Source of the DNA: a virus
IMG/VR virus record: IMGVR_UViG_3300043607_000027
Span: 1 to 41,083 of that record
Reading direction: 5' to 3' (one strand)
Length of the DNA stretch: 41,083 nucleotides
Shown here: positions 13,368 to 41,083 of the stretch, piece after piece
Numbering within the stretch: position 1 is the first letter of the stretch
Layout of the letters: each line of letters opens with the position of its first letter
Translations under genes and position numbers: made by a program
Notes under the pieces: model-generated
The model's database searches: none
What the model was told of the DNA's origin: nothing
What the model saw: only the letters and a program-made list of their open reading frames with translations

Positions 13368-15629
13368 ATGGCTGAAGAAACCACATCCACCGCGTCCGAC
13401 CAGCAACTCTCCCAGATCATCAACCAACTGCTGGCGGACAGGACGGCGCAACCCGCCGTTGATCCCAACACCGGCCCCTCCTCGCGCGAGGGGCGCACCA
13501 TCCTGTCGCTCCTCGGCGAGGGCCTCGGCGGTGGGGCCCAGTATGGATCGGCCACCGACCGTGAGCAGGGTGGCCTGTCCGCCCTCGGCGCGCTGGGTTC
13601 ACGGATGCTTCAGGCGTCCGACTGGTCCGTCATGCCGCACACTTTCGGGTCGATCCTCGGCCAGGGACTGGACGCCGCGCGCGGCAATCTCGGCCACACC
13701 CAGGCGGTCTCGGCGGCACAGCATTACGCGGCGCGACAACTGGCGCATGAGCAGCAACAGGATCAGATCGCGCGGCTGAAAGAGGCGCTGCCGTATCTGC
13801 AACTGCAAGAGCAACAGCGCGCGGCGGTGCGGGCGCGGGAACTGCTGAAGCCAGAAAGCAATACCGATATCGGAAAGGCCGGAACAACCACGACGAGCGA
13901 CGCCCTGCCCGCGACGCCTGAACTGGCCCCCGTCGTGGCCCCTGGCGGCGCGAAGTTTCAGGTCGCGGCCACGGTGGCCGAGAAGTTTCAGGGTCTGGTC
14001 AACGACCTGGAAGCGAACGGCTACAAGCTCGATCCGGCCACATCGGGAGGCTACAACAAGCGTTACATCGCCGGGACGCACACGCCTTCCAACCATGCGT
14101 TCGGCACCGCGATCGACATCAACTGGGCGAAGAACCCGCAAGGCGGGAGCGCCTCCGACCTCCCGCCGGATCTGGCGCGTAAACTGGCCGCCAAACACGG
14201 CCTGGTCTGGGGCGGTGACTGGTCGGGCAAGACGCGCGATCCGATGCACTTCGAGGTGCCGCGACAGCGCGCCGACGCCGCGCCGGAAGACGGCACCGTC
14301 CAGGCGGTCGGCGGTGATGTCGTGCCAACCGGAACCGTCATCCCACCCTCGCCACCCGGCAGCGACGCCGATGTCGCCGACATCAAAGCCGGCATGGTCG
14401 GGGCCGGCGCCGATCCCGACACGCTGGCGCCGGGGCCAGGATCATCCCCGATGGCGCGACCGGGAGCAGTCGTCACCGCCCAGGCGGGCGGGCAACCGCC
14501 TCCCGCTACACAGTTGCCGCCCATCAAGGCCGGCGACGGTCTCATCACGCACCCCGGTACCTACTCCGAGTATCGCGCGCGGGAGTTCGTCCCGCCGCCC
14601 GCGACCGAGGATTTCAACCCTGGCCTGACGCCGCAACAGCAGGGGGCGTTCGCCAATGAACGCAAAGCTCTCGATCAAAGAGCCCTCGTGGAGTCGGCCA
14701 AGACCAATCCCGATCTGAAAGTGGTCGCGGATATCAGGGCCGGACGTGAAGAATTGAAAGCCAAGATCCAGATGGCGGCGCAGGAGAAGGCCCAGAAAGC
14801 CGCGCTCGCGGTCACGAAATACAATGAGACCCAGGACAACGCGATCCGCCCGCGTTACGAGAAAGAGGTCGATGCCTACAAGGCGGCGGCGCAGGCCAAC
14901 CTGACGCACTCTCAGACCATGGAACAGAAAGATAAAGAGGGTGAGATCAGCCGCCTCAACACCCGAGAGGGGTCGTTCGTTGAGAGCAATAAGATAGTTC
15001 GGGACATGATCGGCAAAGATGCCGTGGCGGCCTCGGGCCAGGTGCAGAGTCTGGAAGGGTTGCAGGCCCTGTCCGATAACGTCGGCGACAAGAACGCCAC
15101 GCTGCAAAGCCTCGCCAATGTCAAGGTTGGCGGCACGACGCTGCTTAACCACCTGGCGAGCTTCGGTATCGTCCCCAAGGGTGACGCGGGTCCGATCCAG
15201 ATGCTGCAGAGCGGGATCTCTGGCGCGATCACGCAGTTGCGGGCGGGCGTACAGATGGGCGCTTTGTCCGATCGCGATCTGAGCTTCATCGAGAGCCAGG
15301 GGCCTTCTCTTTACGAGGACCAGGGCACGCGCACCGCCGTTATCAGATACCTACAACAGGCGGCGAAGGCCAAGATGCGGTTCAACACGATCTACCAGGA
15401 GCAGATGGCACGGCCCAACATGGATTCAGGCACGGCGCTGGAGAAGACGCGCGAGATCATGGACGCGAAGCATCCGATCGTGCCGCAAATGACGCCGGAA
15501 GTCGCCGCCGTCTGGAACGAACAGACACCGGAAGCGAAAGCCGCGCGGGCCAAATGGGCGAGAGAGAACAGTGTGAAACAGAATATGCTTGTCCGCCAGC
15601 CTGATGGCTCCCTGATGCTGTTGAAATAG
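13368..15629 (+). CDS. internal virion protein with embedded LAS/M15-type peptidoglycan peptidase domain
   Basis: 753 aa. Residues ~193-297 read ..TPSNHAFGTAIDINW..GLVWGGDW..RDPMHFEV, giving the H-x-D ... H zinc ligands of VanY/M15-like peptidases. The rest is long and helical/low-complexity. Confidence 0.8.
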   Translation: MAEETTSTASDQQLSQIINQLLADRTAQPAVDPNTGPSSREGRTILSLLGEGLGGGAQYGSATDREQGGLSALGALGSRMLQASDWSVMPHTFGSILGQGLDAARGNLGHTQAVSAAQHYAARQLAHEQQQDQIARLKEALPYLQLQEQQRAAVRARELLKPESNTDIGKAGTTTTSDALPATPELAPVVAPGGAKFQVAATVAEKFQGLVNDLEANGYKLDPATSGGYNKRYIAGTHTPSNHAFGTAIDINWAKNPQGGSASDLPPDLARKLAAKHGLVWGGDWSGKTRDPMHFEVPRQRADAAPEDGTVQAVGGDVVPTGTVIPPSPPGSDADVADIKAGMVGAGADPDTLAPGPGSSPMARPGAVVTAQAGGQPPPATQLPPIKAGDGLITHPGTYSEYRAREFVPPPATEDFNPGLTPQQQGAFANERKALDQRALVESAKTNPDLKVVADIRAGREELKAKIQMAAQEKAQKAALAVTKYNETQDNAIRPRYEKEVDAYKAAAQANLTHSQTMEQKDKEGEISRLNTREGSFVESNKIVRDMIGKDAVAASGQVQSLEGLQALSDNVGDKNATLQSLANVKVGGTTLLNHLASFGIVPKGDAGPIQMLQSGISGAITQLRAGVQMGALSDRDLSFIESQGPSLYEDQGTRTAVIRYLQQAAKAKMRFNTIYQEQMARPNMDSGTALEKTREIMDAKHPIVPQMTPEVAAVWNEQTPEAKAARAKWARENSVKQNMLVRQPDGSLMLLK

Positions 15630-32943: not shown

Positions 32944-33168
32944 ATGACTAATGATGTTCCCGAACACACCAACGGTCGTAGCGCCACCAAGATTCTGGCG
33001 TCTGTACCGGAGCGATTGATAAGGGCTCTACCTCCTGGATTTGTCGTTCTTATTTGTCTCAACGTATTGTTCATGGGTGTTCTCGCTTATGCTGTTAATC
33101 ATAACACGGAAGCGCGTAACGCTTTTCTTAAGACCATAATCGATAAATGTCTGGAACGAGAACGATGA
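32944..33168 (+). CDS. small single-pass membrane protein
   Basis: 74 aa with TM segment PPGFVVLICLNVLFMGVLAYAV. Its stop forms an ATGA overlap with terL ATG 33165. G+C is lower than in the neighbours. Confidence 0.55.
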   Translation: MTNDVPEHTNGRSATKILASVPERLIRALPPGFVVLICLNVLFMGVLAYAVNHNTEARNAFLKTIIDKCLERER

Positions 33169-34586
33169 GTGCCACTTTAGCAACAAATCCGTTCCACGCG
33201 GCGATCGAAAAGTATGCCCGCGCGCCGATCGCCTTCGTGCGGGATATTCTTGGTCAACAACCTGACGACTGGCAGATGGAAGCACTGCGCGCGGTGGCGC
33301 GCGGGCACACCCGTCTGGCCATTCGCTCGGGGCATGGCGTCGGCAAGACGTGCTTCGCCGCGTGGCTGTGCGTATGGTTCATCTGCACCCGCGCGCCGTT
33401 CAAGGTCGCCATAACCGCGCCGTCCTCGAGCCAGTTGTTCGACGCGCTATGGCCCGAGTTCATCAAATGGCTGAACATCCTTCCTTCCGGCTGGCGGGAT
33501 CTGTGGGATATTCGCTCCGATCGCGTCACGCTAAAGGCCGATCAGGAATGTTTCGTCACCGCGAGAACCTCTCGCCCCGATACGCCAGAGGCGATGGCGG
33601 GGCTGCACTCGGCGCATATTCTTCTTATCGCCGATGAAGCATCGGGCATCCCCGAGCAGGTCTTCGAAGCCGCCTCGGGCTCGATGTCATCGCATGGCGC
33701 GATAACGCTTCTCATCGGCAACGCGACCAGATCAACCGGTTTCTTCTACCGCGCCCACATGATGGAGCGGGACCGTTGGTATACCCAGAAGGTCTCCTCG
33801 GCCTCTTCCAAACGGGTCACCTCGGAGTTCGTCGATGAAATCGCCAACAGATACGGCATGGATTCAAATGCCTTTCGCGTCCGTGTTCTCGGAGAGTTCC
33901 CTCTTGCTGATGATAACACCCTCATCGGCGCCGACCTCGTCGACAGCGCCATGCTCAGGGATATCGAGATCGATCCTCTCGCCATCGAGATCTGGGGCCT
34001 CGACGTCGCCCGATTCGGCGCCGACGCTTCTGTACTGGTGAAACGAAAAGGGCGCGTCGTGACCGAAATGCCGCGCGCCTGGCATGGCTTGGACACCATG
34101 CGACTGGCCGGAGCCATCAAGGCGGAGTGGGATATCAGCACTTCCAACAATCGCCCTTCCCTCATCTGCATCGACGTGATCGGCATCGGGTCCGGCGTCG
34201 TCGATCGTCTGCACGAGCAAAATCTGCCCATTCTCGGCGTCAATGTCTCCGAAACCGCCTCAACCACCGGTAGATACGCACGCCTACGAGACGAGTTATG
34301 GGTGCGCTGCAAGGAGTGGCTTGGCAACCGCAACGTGCGCCTGCCGCGCCATGATCGCCTCCGCGACGACCTCCTCATGCCGCGTTATTCCTTCCTTAGC
34401 GACGGCAGGCTCCAGGTCGAGAGCAAGCAAAGCATGCGTTCTCGCGGCCTCCCCAGCTGCGATCACGCCGATGCGCTAAACCTTACTTTCTGCGAGCAGG
34501 GGCTGGGTGTCGGGTCCGGCATGACCTCGGGCCTGTTCGACAAAACCCCCATGCACATGAGCCTCGCCGATGGAGATCTGGTATGA
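33165..34586 (+). CDS. terL: terminase large subunit
   Basis: 473 aa from ATG 33165 (ATGA overlap; the track start is 33147). Walker A SGHGVGKT, Walker B LLIADEA. The nuclease half has GLDVARFGAD and DHADAL. Confidence 0.92.
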   Translation: MSATLATNPFHAAIEKYARAPIAFVRDILGQQPDDWQMEALRAVARGHTRLAIRSGHGVGKTCFAAWLCVWFICTRAPFKVAITAPSSSQLFDALWPEFIKWLNILPSGWRDLWDIRSDRVTLKADQECFVTARTSRPDTPEAMAGLHSAHILLIADEASGIPEQVFEAASGSMSSHGAITLLIGNATRSTGFFYRAHMMERDRWYTQKVSSASSKRVTSEFVDEIANRYGMDSNAFRVRVLGEFPLADDNTLIGADLVDSAMLRDIEIDPLAIEIWGLDVARFGADASVLVKRKGRVVTEMPRAWHGLDTMRLAGAIKAEWDISTSNNRPSLICIDVIGIGSGVVDRLHEQNLPILGVNVSETASTTGRYARLRDELWVRCKEWLGNRNVRLPRHDRLRDDLLMPRYSFLSDGRLQVESKQSMRSRGLPSCDHADALNLTFCEQGLGVGSGMTSGLFDKTPMHMSLADGDLV

Positions 34587-37333
34587 GCTACAGCACCTCC
34601 GCGTCGCCCCCTTCGCCCTTCCTGTCCCAGGGCCTCCTCGCCCCTCGACAGATCGCCAACATAAACGATCCCTCGCCCCTGCCCAATATCCCCAACCTGA
34701 TCCCCCAGGGGATGCGGCCCACCCCTTTGTCCGCCTCCCCCTCCGAGCAGATGCTGGCGTTCCTTCTCCCCCCGAAACACGACGAAGATCCGCCTGATTC
34801 CGACCAGTCTCTCCCTTCCGGCCTCCGTAAATACGCCGCCGGCCTGCGCCCCACGCAACGCCCCGCCGCCTCACCCTGGTCCCAGGAAATAGTCTTCGAG
34901 CGTCTCGGCAAGACGGATGTGGAAATCAACGCCGTCGCCCGTTTCTATTACAAAACCGCCCAGAACTATGACGCTTACCTGTCCCGCGAGCGGGTCACCG
35001 CCTCCAATTACTACGCCGGTCTGCCCGATGGGCCGCTGGAAGATGGCCGCTCCAAGCTGACGATGACCGTCGTGCGCGACACCATCCGCCAGACGCTGCC
35101 CTCCCTCCTGCGTATCTTCACCGGCGTCGAAGACCCGGTCTCCTTCCAGCCCCTCTCTTCCGACCACACGACGGCCGCCAACGACCAGCTGGCGACCTCG
35201 CTGGCCAGGCAGGCGACGGACTACGCGCGCTGGGCGTTGTTCACCGCCAACCCCGGCTGGACCATCCTCCACGACGCGCTCCTCGACGCCCTGACCCGCA
35301 AGGCGGGCTGGGTGCGGTGGCACTGGGGGTCCTCGAAACACACCCGCACCGAGGTCGCCGCCGGCCTCTTACTCCCCCAGTTACAGATGCTCCTCGCCGA
35401 GCCCGGCATCGAGGCATCCCGCATCGTCAGACGCCCGATGACACCGGCCGAATCCCAGGCTCTCGCCAAAACCCCCGAAGGCCAACTCTACCTCTCCCAG
35501 GGCGCGCCCGCCGAATACTGGAGCGCCACGATCACCCGGAGCGCCACCCAGGCATGGCCCCAGGTCTCCCACGTCCTCACCGAAAGCGTCTGGATCGCGC
35601 CCGAAGCCGCGTCCGTCGAACAGGCCCCGGCCCTGTTCATCGTCCAGGACTCTACCGTCAGCGATCTGATCGAGGCGGGCCTGCCGGAGGACAAGATCCT
35701 CGCCAACGTCGCCTCGGGGCGTGGCTCCGCCGGGCGGCAGCGGACGGAACTGATCGCGCGGTCCAACGCCCAGGGCCACAACATCGCGGGAGCCCCGCCC
35801 AACGATAAAAGCCAGTCGATCGTGCGCCACGCCGAAGGTTGGATCAGGTGCGACGCCGATGGCGACAATGTCTCCGAGCTGCTGCACGTCCATCTCCTCG
35901 GATCATCACAAAACCTCGTCATGTGGGAGCGGGTCGATGAAATCCCCTTAAGCTGCTTCACCCCCTATCGCGAGCCAGGCAGGGTCATCGGCCAGAGCCA
36001 GGCCGACATGGTCATGGACCTGCAACGGGTCGAATCCCGCGTCATGCGTGGCGTGCTCGATTCACTCGGCCAAAGCATGTTCCCCCGCACGACCGTCGTC
36101 GTGGGCCAGGCCAATCTCGCCGACACCCGCCAGACCGCGATCGGCTCGATCATCCGCGTGGCGCAGCAAGGCGCCGTCGCTGAACTGACCAAGCCGTTCA
36201 TGGGGAAAGAAGCCCTGCCCATAATGGCCGTCCTCGAAACGATCCGCGAGTCTCGCACTGGCATCACGCGGGCCTCGTCGGGTCTGACCGTTGATGAGCT
36301 GCAATCAACGGCCCCGATCGCCGTCTCTCAGCAGTCCTCCGCCGCCCAGGACCGCCTCGACATGGTGGCCCGCACGTTGGCCGAGACCGGGCTGGCCCCG
36401 CTCTACAAGGGCCTCCTGAAGATGCTGGCGCGTCAGCAGGACCGCCCCAACGTCATCCGTATCCGCCAGCAGTGGATACCCATCGACCCGCGCGCCCTGG
36501 CGACCCAATGGGAGACGGCGGTCAACGTGGGTGGGAAAGGAATGCCCCAGGAGCGGCTCCAGATGCTCAGCGCCATCGCCCAGAAGCAGGAGCAACTGAT
36601 CCAGCAAGGGGGCCTTTCCAATCCCCTCGCCGGCCTGCCGGAGTATCGCAACACGCTCGCCCGCATGCTGGAGACGGTGAACATCGCCGACATCAGCTCC
36701 TACTTCAAAGCTCTGCCGCCCGACTTCGCCCCTCCCCCAGCCCCTCCCCCGCCACCCAATACCGACCTCATCCTCGCCGACACGCAGAACAAGAAGACCA
36801 ACGCCGACATCGAGAACACCCGAGCGGATCAACAGACCAAACGCGCCTCCCTACTCCTCGAAGACGATCGCGAACGGGACAAATCCGCCCTCGATGCCTG
36901 GGTGAAAGCGTGGGTGGCGGGGGCTACGTCCAACATCGTCGTCCCCTCTCTCGACGAGTTCAAACAAGCAATGAAAAGCAACGCCCCGGCGGTTGGACTG
37001 CTGTCCGATCTCCCGCCTCCGACCTCGCCCCAACCCCCGGCGGTCGGCGCCCCGCCGCCCCAACAGCAGAAGCCTCCCGGCCCCCAGGGCATGCCGATGA
37101 TGCCTCCAGGGCCACCGAGGCCGCCCATGATGCTTCGGCAACCTCCCACACCCCCCGCTCCGCCCTCGGGCCCCATCAACCCGGAAGCCGCCAACACCAT
37201 TCGTCAGTCCCTGGCGACGGGTCGCTTACCGACAGCGTATGGACAACTGACCCAGCGGGCCTCCGCCTTCCCGCTCAACGGTCCCGGCGGCCCGCCCCTG
37301 CCCTCGCCACCAGGAGGCCAACCCAGTGTCTGA
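34583..37333 (+). CDS. portal protein with Pro-rich N- and C-terminal extensions
   Basis: 916 aa with an ATGA overlap with terL. The core (..NYYAGLPDGP..SKLTMTVVRDTIRQTLPSLLRIF..) resembles podovirus-type portals. The last ~200 aa and first ~100 aa are proline-rich. Confidence 0.85.
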   Translation: MSYSTSASPPSPFLSQGLLAPRQIANINDPSPLPNIPNLIPQGMRPTPLSASPSEQMLAFLLPPKHDEDPPDSDQSLPSGLRKYAAGLRPTQRPAASPWSQEIVFERLGKTDVEINAVARFYYKTAQNYDAYLSRERVTASNYYAGLPDGPLEDGRSKLTMTVVRDTIRQTLPSLLRIFTGVEDPVSFQPLSSDHTTAANDQLATSLARQATDYARWALFTANPGWTILHDALLDALTRKAGWVRWHWGSSKHTRTEVAAGLLLPQLQMLLAEPGIEASRIVRRPMTPAESQALAKTPEGQLYLSQGAPAEYWSATITRSATQAWPQVSHVLTESVWIAPEAASVEQAPALFIVQDSTVSDLIEAGLPEDKILANVASGRGSAGRQRTELIARSNAQGHNIAGAPPNDKSQSIVRHAEGWIRCDADGDNVSELLHVHLLGSSQNLVMWERVDEIPLSCFTPYREPGRVIGQSQADMVMDLQRVESRVMRGVLDSLGQSMFPRTTVVVGQANLADTRQTAIGSIIRVAQQGAVAELTKPFMGKEALPIMAVLETIRESRTGITRASSGLTVDELQSTAPIAVSQQSSAAQDRLDMVARTLAETGLAPLYKGLLKMLARQQDRPNVIRIRQQWIPIDPRALATQWETAVNVGGKGMPQERLQMLSAIAQKQEQLIQQGGLSNPLAGLPEYRNTLARMLETVNIADISSYFKALPPDFAPPPAPPPPPNTDLILADTQNKKTNADIENTRADQQTKRASLLLEDDRERDKSALDAWVKAWVAGATSNIVVPSLDEFKQAMKSNAPAVGLLSDLPPPTSPQPPAVGAPPPQQQKPPGPQGMPMMPPGPPRPPMMLRQPPTPPAPPSGPINPEAANTIRQSLATGRLPTAYGQLTQRASAFPLNGPGGPPLPSPPGGQPSV

Positions 37334-37502
37334 TCTTCCAACAAGCCAGCGGCCTCTCATCATTGAGGTGCTACTGGATGGCGAAGTCATCGCCACGGGA
37401 ACGTGCTCGTCGGAAACCGTCAACTTGTCGGAGTTGGTCGGGATGCCTTTGGTGCCGGCGATGCTCCGGCGGATCGCCGATAAATGGGAGGCCAACCCAT
37501 GA
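37326..37502 (+). CDS. small protein, paralog of 18829..19053
   Basis: 58 aa. GTG start with GGAGG 8 nt upstream, overlapping the portal end by 8 nt. Core LIIEVLLDGEVIATGTCSSE..VGMPLVPAMLRRIADKWEA. Below the track cutoff. Confidence 0.6.
   Translation: MSDLPTSQRPLIIEVLLDGEVIATGTCSSETVNLSELVGMPLVPAMLRRIADKWEANP
37344..37496. repeat. inverted-repeat copy A (partner 18881..19029)
   Basis: See copy B. The 61-nt perfect block is at 37356..37416. Confidence 0.9.
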
Positions 37503-37660
37503 ACCTCATTCTCCTCATCCTCATCCTCCTTCTCCTCTTTGGAGGACTTGGCGGCGGTTACTGGGCGCATTCCAACTACGGCGGGTATTACGGTCCCGGT
37601 ATCGGCATCGGGGCCATTCTCCTCGTCGTCTTGTTGTTCATCCTGCTGCGCGGTTACTGA
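37499..37660 (+). CDS. two-TM small membrane protein (DUF3309-like)
   Basis: 53 aa: MNLILLILILLLLFGGLGGGYWAHSNYGGYYGPGIGIGAILLVVLLFILLRGY. ATGA overlap, with the GGGAGG SD lying inside the upstream gene. Below the track cutoff. Confidence 0.6.
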   Translation: MNLILLILILLLLFGGLGGGYWAHSNYGGYYGPGIGIGAILLVVLLFILLRGY

Positions 37661-37663
37661 ACA

Positions 37664-37921
37664 GTGCCGCTCAGCGCCGAACGCCTCATCCAGTGCGAGG
37701 CGGCGAAACGCTTCATCGCCGATCCGCACTTCAACGCTCTCCTCGACCGTATCGCCGAGGACGCGACCAGGAACGCGATCTTCCTCGAGGACGCCTCCAA
37801 CCGCGAGGCGAACCGTCAGTTGATCCTGGCGATCAAACGGGTCTGGGAGGAACTCCAGGCCGACGCCGAGGCCCCCGAGGCTGAGGCCTCCATCAGCGCC
37901 CACGCCCAGAGCATGGAGTAA
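37664..37921 (+). CDS. hypothetical head-module protein
   Basis: 85 aa with a GTG start, helical-looking. No family recognised. Confidence 0.55.
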   Translation: MPLSAERLIQCEAAKRFIADPHFNALLDRIAEDATRNAIFLEDASNREANRQLILAIKRVWEELQADAEAPEAEASISAHAQSME

Positions 37922-37924
37922 CCC

Positions 37925-38956
37925 ATGGCGTCTTTACTCGACGAGGTGCTGGGCCAGGCAGATCAGACACCTCGGCCTCTTCTCCAGCTGCCCGACGAAC
38001 GGCCGCCGTCCTTCCAGCCGGACCCGCGCGCCGACGCCCTCGGCCAGACCTACAAAGACATCACCGACTACATGGCCCAACAGCACCAGAAGGGGGTCGA
38101 TGAAGGTTACTGGACCGGCGGCGGGCTGCTGGAAGGCGGCCACCCGACATTGAAGGCATTCAATTCCGCCGCCGACGAATATGCTCAGGGCCTTCTCATG
38201 GGGACCACGTCGCCATCAGGCAAATACCTGAAGGCGTATCACGGCAGCCCGCACAAGTTTGATGCGTTCAGCGACAAAGCCATCGGCACGGGCGAGGGCG
38301 CGCAGGCTTACGGCTACGGCCATTATCTCGCCGAGAACGAAGGTATCGCGCAGGGCTATCGTAAGAAACTGTCTGGTCCTCGTCCCGACTATACCGGCGA
38401 GATCGCGCCAGAGCTCAGAGCGGCGCTGGAAGCCGAAGACCACCTCGGTTTCGACAGTCCGGGACAGGCCATCGCCGCGATACGGGCGCATCCCGACTGG
38501 GCGGAGCGATGGGACATTCAGAACCCAGACGCGCTCAAGGCGGGCCTGGAGGCCCACGACGCGGCGAAGTATGGCGGCCGGGGCCACATGTATGAGGTCA
38601 ACGTCGCCGCCGATCCCGAGAAATTCCTACACTGGGACAAGCCGCTCTCCGAACAGCACCCGGATGTTCAGGCGGCCCTGGCGAAACTGCCGCCGCCAGA
38701 TGACAATCTGATGTTTCCCATTACACCTAAATCTCTCGGACGTGACTACGTTTCGGGATATGGCTCCCAGGCACTGAAAGACGTGGGCCTCCCCGGCATC
38801 CGCTACCTCGACGCGGGCAGCCGCGGCGCGGGCGAAGGCAGCCACAATGCCGTCGTCTTCGATCCCGCCACCATGGAAATCATCAGACGCTACGGCCTCG
38901 CCGGTCTGATGCTGGGCGGCGGCGGTCTCCTCTCACCTGACAAACAAGAGCAATAA
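37925..38956 (+). CDS. putative H-Y-E (PARP-like) ADP-ribosyltransferase-fold protein, possibly encapsidated
   Basis: 343 aa. AYHGSPHKF (H106), AYGYGHYLAENEGIAQGY (Y134) and GHMYEVNV (E224), with PARP-like spacing. It lies between the portal and scaffold genes. Recognised by motif only. Confidence 0.45.
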   Translation: MASLLDEVLGQADQTPRPLLQLPDERPPSFQPDPRADALGQTYKDITDYMAQQHQKGVDEGYWTGGGLLEGGHPTLKAFNSAADEYAQGLLMGTTSPSGKYLKAYHGSPHKFDAFSDKAIGTGEGAQAYGYGHYLAENEGIAQGYRKKLSGPRPDYTGEIAPELRAALEAEDHLGFDSPGQAIAAIRAHPDWAERWDIQNPDALKAGLEAHDAAKYGGRGHMYEVNVAADPEKFLHWDKPLSEQHPDVQAALAKLPPPDDNLMFPITPKSLGRDYVSGYGSQALKDVGLPGIRYLDAGSRGAGEGSHNAVVFDPATMEIIRRYGLAGLMLGGGGLLSPDKQEQ

Positions 38957-38958
38957 CC

Positions 38959-40092
38959 ATGTCCGAATCCACTTCCACCCCCGCCTCCGCCCCAACCCCG
39001 GCCGCCACTCCCGCGCCCGCCGTCACACCGGCGGCCCCAACAACCCCCTCGACTGACCCTGGCGTATCGCCACCAGCGAACGATAAACCGCCGATCTCCG
39101 TCTCCGAGGCGGCGCGTCTGCTGTCGCGCCAGCGGCGCGAAGGCGCGCCCCCTCCGCCTCCCGCCCAAACCCCCGAAAGGCGTCCTCCGGCGGCGGAACT
39201 GGCGAAAACACCACCTCCCGCCGCCCCAACACCCCAAACCACGCCAACACCGGCCCCTTCGCCTCTCAGCGCGATGGAAAAGGCCCTCGGCGTGCCCCCA
39301 ACGGCTCCGCCATCACAAGAATCCACGTCACAAACCCCCGAAACGCCCCAAAATGCTCTTTCCGCCCTCGAAATAGACGGAAAACACTATTCCCAGACCG
39401 AATTACGCGAAGCGGTGCTGAAATCGACCGATTACACCCGGAAAACCCAGGAACTGGCCCAGCAACGCCAACAACTGGAGGCGCAACAGCGGGCGTTGGC
39501 GGAGGTGCTGCCGCACATCCAGCCGGAACTGATGCGGCTTCAGGAAATGGTGCAGAATCCGCCCCAACCGCCTGATCCCTCTCTGATCGAGACCAATCAG
39601 CAGCAGTATCTGCGCGAGCGCGCCCAGTATGAGCACGCCCTGGCCGAACAGCAGCGCCTGTTCAGTCTCAATAACCTCCAGAGCGCCGCCCAGCAGCGGG
39701 CGCTGGAGCAGCAGGTGGCCGCCGCCAATGAGGTGCTGGCGAAGGAACTGCCGTTCTGGGCCGATCCCCGACAGCGGCTGGAGGCGCAACAGCAGATCGT
39801 CGAATGGGCCACGTCCAAGGGTGGTTTCAGTCGTGACGAACTACGTGGTCTCTCCAGTCCGCATCATCTCAAGACCATGATGAAGGCGGCACTATTCGAT
39901 CGCTGGGTGGAGGGCGCGAAGACCTCCGCGCCGCCATCATCCTCTGTCCCCGCGCGTGGTGCCGCACCCCCGCCCGCGCCCTCGGAGCGTATCGCCGCCG
40001 CCACCGAGGCGTTCCAGGCCCGCCCCGACGCCCGTAGCGGCGCGGCGTTGATCGCGGCGCGCCGGGCGGCGATGAACGGTGGCGCGCGATGA
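38959..40092 (+). CDS. scaffolding protein
   Basis: 377 aa. The N-terminal ~140 aa are Pro/Thr/Ala-rich, followed by a long Gln/Glu/Leu/Arg-rich coiled-coil-like region. It is immediately upstream of the capsid gene. Confidence 0.7.
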   Translation: MSESTSTPASAPTPAATPAPAVTPAAPTTPSTDPGVSPPANDKPPISVSEAARLLSRQRREGAPPPPPAQTPERRPPAAELAKTPPPAAPTPQTTPTPAPSPLSAMEKALGVPPTAPPSQESTSQTPETPQNALSALEIDGKHYSQTELREAVLKSTDYTRKTQELAQQRQQLEAQQRALAEVLPHIQPELMRLQEMVQNPPQPPDPSLIETNQQQYLRERAQYEHALAEQQRLFSLNNLQSAAQQRALEQQVAAANEVLAKELPFWADPRQRLEAQQQIVEWATSKGGFSRDELRGLSSPHHLKTMMKAALFDRWVEGAKTSAPPSSSVPARGAAPPPAPSERIAAATEAFQARPDARSGAALIAARRAAMNGGAR

Positions 40093-40490: not shown

Positions 40491-41083
40491 ATGGCACTTG
40501 GATCAATGGGCGCGGCGCCGGCGAACACGTATTTAGAGCCGGCCGCCATTGGAGTTAAGGAAGATCTCCGCGATGTGATCTTCCAGATCGATCCCGACGA
40601 GACACCTCTTGTTTCCGCCATTCCCAGTGTGGAAGCGAAACAAATCCTCACCGAGTGGGTCGTCCAGGAGCTTGGGGTCGTGGCCGACAACGCCCAACCC
40701 GAGGGCTTCACCGCCAGTATGCAGGCGGTGACGAAACCCGTCCGCATGAACAACATCGCCCAGATCCTCGTCCGCACGGTGGGCGTGTCCAACACGCTGC
40801 GCTCGGTCGATATGGTCGGCGGCGAGGACGAATACGATCGCCAGCTGATCCTGCGCGGGATGGAAGTGAAGCGCGACCTGGAGTTCGCCATCACATCGCC
40901 GCTGGTCCGTACCATCACCGATCCGCGTCACATGAGCGGCCTTCCCTGTTACTGCGCCAATGGCTCACGCGGCACTGGCGCGGGTGTGATGCCGGTCGGC
41001 GATGGGTCCAACGCGGGCACGCCGGGCACCAAGCGCGACCTCACGCTGGCGATGCTCGACGCCGCCGTGCAGCAGGCGTGGCA
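40491..41083 (+). CDS. major capsid protein, 5' portion (continues at 128..518 after the junction)
   Basis: ATG 40491 with GGAGA 6 nt upstream. The frame stays open to the window end and is continuous with 1..518. Confidence 0.85.
   Translation, partial: MALGSMGAAPANTYLEPAAIGVKEDLRDVIFQIDPDETPLVSAIPSVEAKQILTEWVVQELGVVADNAQPEGFTASMQAVTKPVRMNNIAQILVRTVGVSNTLRSVDMVGGEDEYDRQLILRGMEVKRDLEFAITSPLVRTITDPRHMSGLPCYCANGSRGTGAGVMPVGDGSNAGTPGTKRDLTLAMLDAAVQQAW
40957..41083. repeat. terminal overlap identical to 1..127
   Basis: Exact 127-nt match to the window start. Confidence 0.97.

Follow-up and report, generated by a model that had tools for sequence, protein, structure and literature searches.

The window analysed here is the whole 41,083-nt stretch that covers positions 1 to 41,083 of the IMG/VR virus record IMGVR_UViG_3300043607_000027. 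A gene for a 343-aa protein lies in this window between a portal gene and a scaffold-like gene, as an initial annotation of the DNA had stated and as matches to phrog_1216 and phrog_3927 confirm. That annotation also proposed that the protein is an ADP-ribosyltransferase (ART) of the PARP/diphtheria-toxin type, with an H-Y-E catalytic triad, which is encapsidated and ejected with the DNA. The ART fold, the first two residues of the triad and the association with the head module are borne out by the present analysis, whereas the proposed catalytic glutamate is not. By profile comparison, the protein belongs to the ART-PolyVal family, as a divergent member that stands alone. A GGAG Shine-Dalgarno sequence is located 6 nt 5' of the ATG. 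The gene, its parts and the two flanking head genes are as follows.

34583..37333 (+): portal gene (phrog_1216, E 1.6e-101)
37925..38956 (+): coding sequence of the 343-aa protein, ATG start; a stand-alone divergent ART-PolyVal-type protein
37925..38218 (+): aa 1-98, N-terminal region, helical in the model with moderate confidence
38219..38374 (+): aa 99-150, N-terminal half of the ART core, with strand 1 (H106-G-S-P), the E124 loop, strand 2 (Y134) and then the Y145 helix
38375..38575 (+): aa 151-217, hypervariable helical insert 1, 1-133 aa in homologues and absent from Okabevirinae copies
38576..38674 (+): aa 218-250, middle of the ART core, with strand 3 (GHMYEVNV), a short hairpin strand (KFLHW-D238) and the KPL motif
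38675..38779 (+): aa 251-285, variable insert 2, 33-107 aa in homologues
38780..38902 (+): aa 286-326, C-terminal half of the ART core, with the GIRYL strand, D296, the AGSRGAGEGSH loop (S299, R300), N308-AVVFD and the final strand MEIIRRY
38903..38953 (+): aa 327-343 (GLMLGGGGLLSPDKQEQ), C-terminal tail, conserved, Gly/Ala-rich and mildly hydrophobic
38959..40092 (+): scaffold-like gene, directly 3' of the ART-like gene (phrog_3927, E 1.7e-26)

The solo proteins of ~350 aa have this N-terminal region in common, but it is shared neither by gp5 of Sulfitobacter phage PhiGT1, a homologue, nor by the copies found within giant proteins. No family match was obtained for aa 1-98, which form a candidate capsid- or portal-targeting region.

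Fold and family of the protein

The AlphaFold2 model of the full-length protein has a predicted local distance difference test (pLDDT) score of 75.9. The domain trimmed to aa 99-326 was modelled with a pLDDT of 91.1 and a predicted TM-score (pTM) of 0.83. A Foldseek search against BFVD returned 31 matches at E<=1e-3, many of which are named ART-PolyVal-like or large polyvalent proteins. Trimming to aa 99-326 rendered the list of PDB matches uniformly ART-fold; the top 50 PDB neighbours of the trimmed model are tankyrase-1/2 (probability 0.85-0.97), PARP15, the RES-domain protein MbcT (E 0.07, TMt 0.41-0.43) and one phage ejection protein. With these viral-library matches and the tankyrase and PARP15 neighbours, the predicted ART fold is well supported, and tankyrase and PARP15 are the closest solved enzymes. 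The best PDB fold match, 9k3a_B (cyanophage A4 pre-ejectosome chain B; E 6e-3, probability 0.99, TMq 0.41), was not used as evidence. In Anabaena phage A-4L (16766-29652 of the locus examined, L017), gp26-29 gave no sequence match to the family hidden Markov model (HMM), and gp28 is without an HG[ST] motif.

ART-PolyVal corresponds to the 'N4-ART' or Tox-ART-HYD2 clade described by Iyer, Burroughs, Anand, de Souza and Aravind in 2017, with the virion RNA polymerase (vRNAP) of RPP1, CBX87992.1, as its prototype (PMC5512222). The corresponding Pfam model, PF18760, matches residues 99-147 at E 2e-5, a partial match that scores below the gathering threshold. At E<=10, Pfam gave only PF18760 and, weakly, DUF3990, with no PARP catalytic, RES, R-S-E or MuF (PF04233) model; NCBIfam contains no family for the protein; and sequence searches of the PDB with the single sequence and with the 91-sequence profile gave Prp19 and a pseudokinase as the best matches, at E>0.5. 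Although the PF18760 match is partial, homology is settled by a significant profile-profile comparison. The core with both variable inserts removed, taken from the 91-sequence alignment, was aligned by hhalign with five domains of the RPP1 prototype group at 95.6% probability and E 1.1e-8 over 112 columns. The link to ART-PolyVal made in the initial annotation is therefore upheld by both the profile comparison and the BFVD fold matches. The solo protein of EspM4VN (L015) was excluded from the alignments because its C-terminal half looked frameshifted.

Partial PF18760 matches are also seen elsewhere in the family. The RPP1 vRNAP prototype scores 36.5 bits over model positions 5-70 only, which is half of the model, and the scores of other relatives are 53 bits (P0070), 49.9 (P0049), 31.2 (P0222), 145 (Tunturi_5) and 111 (P0125). 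The identical database protein (P0001) and about half of the listed relatives carry a precomputed PF18760 assignment. A word-indexed search detected at least 6,572 homologous proteins, and an exhaustive search detected 14,136 representative clusters at E<=1e-3. The domain of the type found in the window (window-type domain) also occurs inside proteins of up to 5,566 aa.

Two of these large proteins carry both domain types. P0125 (2975 aa) contains two window-type domains followed by one canonical ART-PolyVal domain and then LPD38. Gp273 of Tunturiibacter phage Tunturi_5 (L020, 1489 aa) contains a NUDIX domain (140-254), a full-length canonical ART-PolyVal domain (425-567, 145 bits), a GNAT domain (about 597-647) and a window-type domain (807-1054). 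Canonical and window-type domains thus occur together in single polypeptides and are therefore distinct paralogues, not variants of one another. The NUDIX fusion lends contextual support to a link with NAD/ADP-ribose chemistry.

The window-type and canonical domains share the strand-1 His, the strand-2 aromatic residue, the second Tyr, a KP[LM] motif and an h-V-V-F strand, and both are found in phage virion-associated and giant polyvalent proteins. The NxVVFD strand, named in the initial annotation as an ART-PolyVal trait, is a genuine feature of the family. In contrast to canonical members, the protein of the window stands alone, is interrupted by two hypervariable inserts and carries an additional strand-3/4 hairpin (KFLHWD).

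The His/Tyr pocket and the catalytic-acid position

Conservation was counted over ~265 domain copies from 234 diverse proteins. For the comparison with solved enzymes, the family profile was aligned by hhalign with tankyrase-2 (E 3e-4; query sequence identical to 3W51_A and 3KR7_A) and with PARP15 (E 1.2e-4; sequence of 6RY4_A). The codons of the residues discussed are listed below.

38240..38242 (+): H106, in strand 102-108; corresponds to tankyrase-2 H1031; 97% conserved
38324..38326 (+): Y134, in strand 133-136; corresponds to tankyrase-2 Y1060 and to the Tyr of PARP15 GTYFA; 99% conserved
38357..38359 (+): Y145; corresponds to tankyrase-2 Y1071, the second Tyr; 99% conserved
38594..38596 (+): E224, the proposed catalytic Glu; strand 3 (residues 221-227), a non-canonical position
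38846..38848 (+): N308; at or adjoining the catalytic Glu position of PARP1/tankyrase

The motifs on which the H-Y-E proposal was built are real and correctly numbered: AYHGSPHKF at 104-112 (H106), AQAYGYGHYLAENEGIAQGY at 126-145 (Y134), GRGHMYEVNV at 218-227 (E224) and SHNAVVFDPATMEII at 306-320. Chance does not account for the H and Y motifs, given the PF18760 match and the tankyrase-2 alignment, in which H106 and Y134 occupy the positions of the first two triad residues as originally proposed. The H106 column is His, and the Y134 column aromatic (Y, F or W), in 14/14 aligned canonical and window-type domains. As judged from the same alignment, the second PARP-type Tyr, Y145, is also present in the protein. 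Besides these pocket residues, near-invariant polar residues are found at E124 (in the GTGEGAQAYG loop), D238, D296 (99%), S299, R300 and N308; E124, D238, D296, S299 and R300 could, from their conservation, contribute to catalysis or binding.

A sub-clade comprising P0005, P0006, P0012, P0014, P0015, P0019 and P0041 has Gln in place of H106. This substitution is always accompanied by E124 to Thr and by an 8-aa insertion after the HKF motif, which points to a functional coupling between H106 and the GTGEG loop or to degeneration of the sub-clade.

The likeness to tankyrase-1/2 and PARP15 (PDB 3KR7, 4PNR, 6RY4) extends over HGSP, G-x-Y-[FL]-A-E-N...Y, HMY-x-V-x-V and x-VVF-D and over the order of the seven strands. 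Unlike these enzymes, the protein lacks the Glu of E1138/E988, the PARP helical regulatory domain and the zinc-binding motif, contains a 68-aa helical insert, and superimposes with TM-scores of only ~0.35.

The assignment of E224 as the catalytic Glu of an H-Y-E enzyme is not supported by its location. The penultimate core strand of ARTs begins with the catalytic Glu (PARP1 E988, tankyrase-2 E1138). E224 lies on strand 3, which is not the strand of the catalytic residue, and GHMYEVNV pairs at high local confidence with KHMYVVRV of PARP15, which places E224 opposite a core Val. The column is well conserved in the subfamily (Glu in 85% of copies, Gln in 9%, and H, N, A, M and K among the rest), and the RPP1 prototype likewise has Glu, both of which favour the assignment. 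However, the seven canonical ART-PolyVal domains have P, P, E, S, S, P and D in this column, the Glu being that of RPP1, so that six of the seven differ; the internal virion proteins of the Okabevirinae (Ralstonia and Burkholderia) have Arg; and both copies in P0070 have His. Conservation is high for H106 and Y134, whereas E224 gives way to other residues elsewhere in the family. The stated spacings (28 and 90 residues) are correct, but the likeness of the 90-residue Y-to-E spacing to that of PARP1 is a coincidence, because this stretch spans insert 1, whose length varies widely among homologues. An H-Y-E enzyme of the PARP/diphtheria-toxin type with E224 as its acid is thus the least probable of the explanations weighed here.

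The strand equivalent to the catalytic strand in the model is N308-AVVF-D313, with the seven strands in the same order as in tankyrase, an order that is established knowledge for PARPs. Three alignments, each of low confidence in this segment but mutually consistent, place the Glu of tankyrase-2 or the Leu of PARP15 on N308, or on H307 with a one-residue shift: hhalign with the inserts deleted, MAFFT in two modes on the C-terminal segments, and hhalign with PARP15. No significance was reached when the C-terminal core alone was compared by hhalign with tankyrase-2 or with the canonical domains. At position 308, 99% of copies have Asn and 0/264 have an acidic residue; position 307 varies (H, R, S, Y, K), with an acid in 3/265. 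In contrast, the residue that opens the penultimate strand of the canonical ART-PolyVal domains is E, E, E, E, D, D or H. The 'H-Y-E, PARP/diphtheria-toxin-like' label therefore does not suit the protein, which has no acid at H307/N308.

Nor does the label suit the family as published, in which polyvalent-protein ARTs are defined as H-Y-D, with His on strand 1, Tyr on strand 2 and Asp on strand 5; the exact column of the strand-5 Asp is not stated (PMC5512222). An invariant Asp in the G[YH]D[GS] motif of the canonical domains, a motif that resembles the non-catalytic FDS of PARP15, aligns with P290 (K, R or H in other window-type copies). When the strand-5 Asp was sought in these low-confidence alignments, the Asp column fell on P290 and the E/D strand-opener on N308 +/-1. 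Other Asp residues nearby are D296, which ends the preceding strand, and D313 (84%), which ends the N308 strand. D296, D313, D238, E124 and E304 were considered as relocated catalytic acids, and none could be assigned. Because the alignments in the strand-5 segment are of low confidence, the protein was filed as belonging to a divergent acid-less branch and not as a canonical H-Y-D enzyme. On these alignments, the window-type domain is best written H-Y-x-N, because N308 is invariant, residue 307 is rarely acidic and the canonical Asp is replaced at P290.

Portal linkage, probable packaging and possible function

The gene adjoins or lies near the portal gene in 6/6 contexts examined, with differing portal and capsid types. 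These contexts are the window, PhiGT1, two contigs of metagenome-assembled genomes (P22-type portal and coat) and two further contigs, one with the gene directly upstream of the portal gene and one with an SU10-type portal and capsid. On a 102-kb contig (L018, 7001-10314), the homologue lies directly upstream of, and overlaps, a P22-type portal gene, an arrangement which shows that the portal linkage is conserved and the gene order is not.

A syntenic homologue is gp5 of PhiGT1 (QLB38217.1), which is 39% identical over 246 aa. The order in PhiGT1 is portal, gp4, gp5, gp6, scaffold and capsid, so that gp5 occupies the same portal-to-scaffold slot. The two proteins share the whole ART-like domain and the same H, Y and N residues; their N-terminal regions are unrelated. 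In purified PhiGT1 virions, gp5 was detected by mass spectrometry with 12 spectra and a spectral count over molecular weight (SC/MW) of 0.29, compared with 0.67 for the portal and a contamination level of 0.2 set by the authors (PMC10386132, Table S3). It is annotated only as a hypothetical 'head module' protein, its ART nature is unremarked in the record and the paper, and no other relative has mass-spectrometry evidence of presence in virions. Between the portal gene and gp5, PhiGT1 encodes another 'head module' protein that occurs in virions at low copy number, gp4 (L001 3697-4917; 43 kDa, SC/MW 0.16). No open reading frame (ORF) of the size of gp4 is found in the equivalent place in the window.

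The detection of gp5 in virions supports packaging for relatives of the protein, in line with the encapsidation that its head-module position had suggested. In the Okabevirinae, the window-type domain lies inside a large internal virion protein that also carries a transglycosylase domain. Ejection into the host would follow by analogy with such internal virion proteins and with T4 Alt, a functional analogue in that it is a head-packaged ART injected with the DNA (PMC5512222, PMC9503650). T4 Alt differs in belonging to the R-S-E (Alt/VIP2) clade, with another active site, and in being encoded near baseplate genes; no sequence relationship between the two proteins was detected. The protein of the window has H-G-S on strand 1 and Y-L-A on strand 2 and matches no R-S-E model in Pfam, and it is therefore not of the R-S-E type. 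Effectors fused to MuF or SPP1 gp7 are likewise portal-adjacent, low-copy head proteins with effector domains (PMC5512222, PMC9503650), but the present protein has no MuF domain (PF04233) in Pfam, PHROGs and NCBIfam searches.

We favour, with a rough probability of 0.55, the reading that the protein is a low-copy, capsid-packaged and probably ejected protein that would bind NAD+ and act as an acid-less mono-ADP-ribosyltransferase. It would be made alongside the head proteins, enter the capsid at low copy number and most likely be released into the host together with the DNA. The PARP-type NAD-pocket residues appear to be kept (the strand-1 His, the strand-2 Tyr and the second Tyr 11 residues on), and the activity would most likely be a mono-ADP-ribosyl transfer without the acid, comparable to that of the H-Y-Leu/Ile PARPs. 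The two hypervariable inserts would supply specificity for a putative substrate. Several results weigh against this reading. A literature search found no enzymology and no NAD-dependent activity for any family member, and the missing catalytic acid could mean an inactive domain. The Ser that precedes the second Tyr by three residues in PARPs is Ala in the protein on inspection of the sequence. The C-terminal alignments that locate the catalytic position are of low confidence, with an ambiguity of one residue. The PF18760 match scores 25.8 bits against a gathering threshold of 31.2, an operational cut-off that does not define homology, and covers only model positions 4-46 of 140. Foldseek searches of the PDB with the full-length and trimmed models gave no match at E<=1e-3 and TM-scores of only 0.33-0.43.

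The main rival is a pseudo-enzyme or binding role, a reading to which we give perhaps one chance in a few. The domain would then be a dead pseudo-ART that serves as a structural or assembly part of the portal or core, or as a decoy or sensor that binds NAD+ or ADP-ribose, without transferring ADP-ribose. The lack of an acid at the canonical position in ~264 copies, the loss of the canonical G[YH]D[GS] Asp (P, K, R or H) and the low-copy presence in virions of a protein encoded beside the portal gene are all consistent with such a role, and the tandem arrangement with acid-bearing canonical domains in P0125 and Tunturi_5 gp273 suggests that the two domain types do different things. However, the 97-99% conservation of H106, Y134 and Y145, together with that of E124, D238, D296, S299, R300 and N308, is a pattern typical of a working active site, and acid-less PARPs of the H-Y-Ile/Leu type are active mono-ARTs. 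A further reading, possible and held tentatively, stresses the branch itself: a very large acid-less H-Y-x-N paralogous group (at least 14,000 clusters at 50% identity), a virion component in tandem with canonical ARTs, whose chemistry may be unlike classical protein ADP-ribosylation. Substrate-assisted modification of acidic side chains, ADP-ribosylation of nucleic-acid phosphate ends, and the binding or sequestering of NAD+/ADP-ribose-derived defence signals at the onset of infection are among the possibilities, and both hypervariable inserts would be evolving under an arms race. It is unlikely that the protein is a late-expressed cytoplasmic enzyme that is unpackaged in this phage, with a gene position of historical meaning only. 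The PhiGT1 virion data do come from a relative that does not share the N-terminal 98 residues, with a signal only modestly above the contamination level, but the portal linkage is kept across unrelated portal and capsid types, and both internal virion proteins and vRNAP-type polyvalent proteins contain the domain. Slightly less probable still is an NAD+-degrading enzyme (an NADase or a RES/MbcT-like NAD+ phosphorylase) that would lower host NAD+ or destroy NAD-derived defence signals and leave macromolecules unmodified. The best-ranked PDB fold neighbours include MbcT, phosphate binding by the invariant S299-R300 is conceivable, and a NUDIX domain is fused in Tunturi_5, yet the closest sequence and profile matches are PARP-type enzymes and Pfam gave no RES match at E<=10. 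The RES/MbcT-like reading was dropped as the primary explanation because strand 1 carries a PARP-type H-G-S and not the RES-domain Arg.

The PF18760 family and head-packaged, injected ARTs have already been published, and ARTs encoded beside terminase, portal and capsid genes were proposed there to be packaged and injected (PMC5512222; PMC9503650). Such head-packaged ARTs beyond T4 Alt have been predicted since 2017, and no biochemical characterisation was found in the literature. Apparently unstated there are that the abundant solo form is acid-less with an invariant Asn, that it is a paralogue distinct from the canonical domain, and that PhiGT1 gp5, a virion protein by mass spectrometry, is ART-like. 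The solo form is extremely abundant and has one cultured relative with virion proteomics, which together make it a compact and tractable entry point for experiments. Mutagenesis should address H106, Y134 and N308, and also D296, R300 and E124; E224 should not serve as the catalytic control. An active acid-less branch would give phages an equivalent of the H-Y-Ile/Leu mono-ART PARPs, whereas an inactive one would amount to a widespread pseudo-enzyme of virions, with a role still to be explained.

Neighbouring genes of the window

Positions 1-127 of the window are identical to 40957-41083, and these 127-nt ends indicate that the window is therefore a complete, circularly assembled genome of ~40,956 bp. 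Further genes of the window are as follows.

33147-34586: large terminase gene
37326-37502, 37484-37660, 37664-37921: three small ORFs that separate the portal gene from the ART-like gene
40491-41083 continuing to 518: major capsid gene, 327 aa, crossing the circular junction
13368-15629: gene for a 753-aa protein in which aa 236-327 form an endolysin/lysozyme-like segment

Tail, fibre and collar proteins are present in the window, together with a weak ejection-protein match. The 753-aa protein, whose gene is separate from the ART-like one, is probably an internal virion (ejection) protein that includes a domain for cell-wall degradation. Neither a tape-measure nor a sheath match was found among the window proteins, which fits a short-tailed phage. 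The three small ORFs upstream of the ART-like gene have no match in PHROGs or NCBIfam; the middle one (58 aa) overlaps the first and resembles a two-helix, Leu/Gly-rich membrane peptide. Both flanking head proteins carry unusual low-complexity additions. The portal has an extremely proline-rich C-terminal extension of ~150 aa (aa ~770-916), and the scaffold-like protein has a long Pro/Ala/Thr-rich N-terminus (aa 1-~110).

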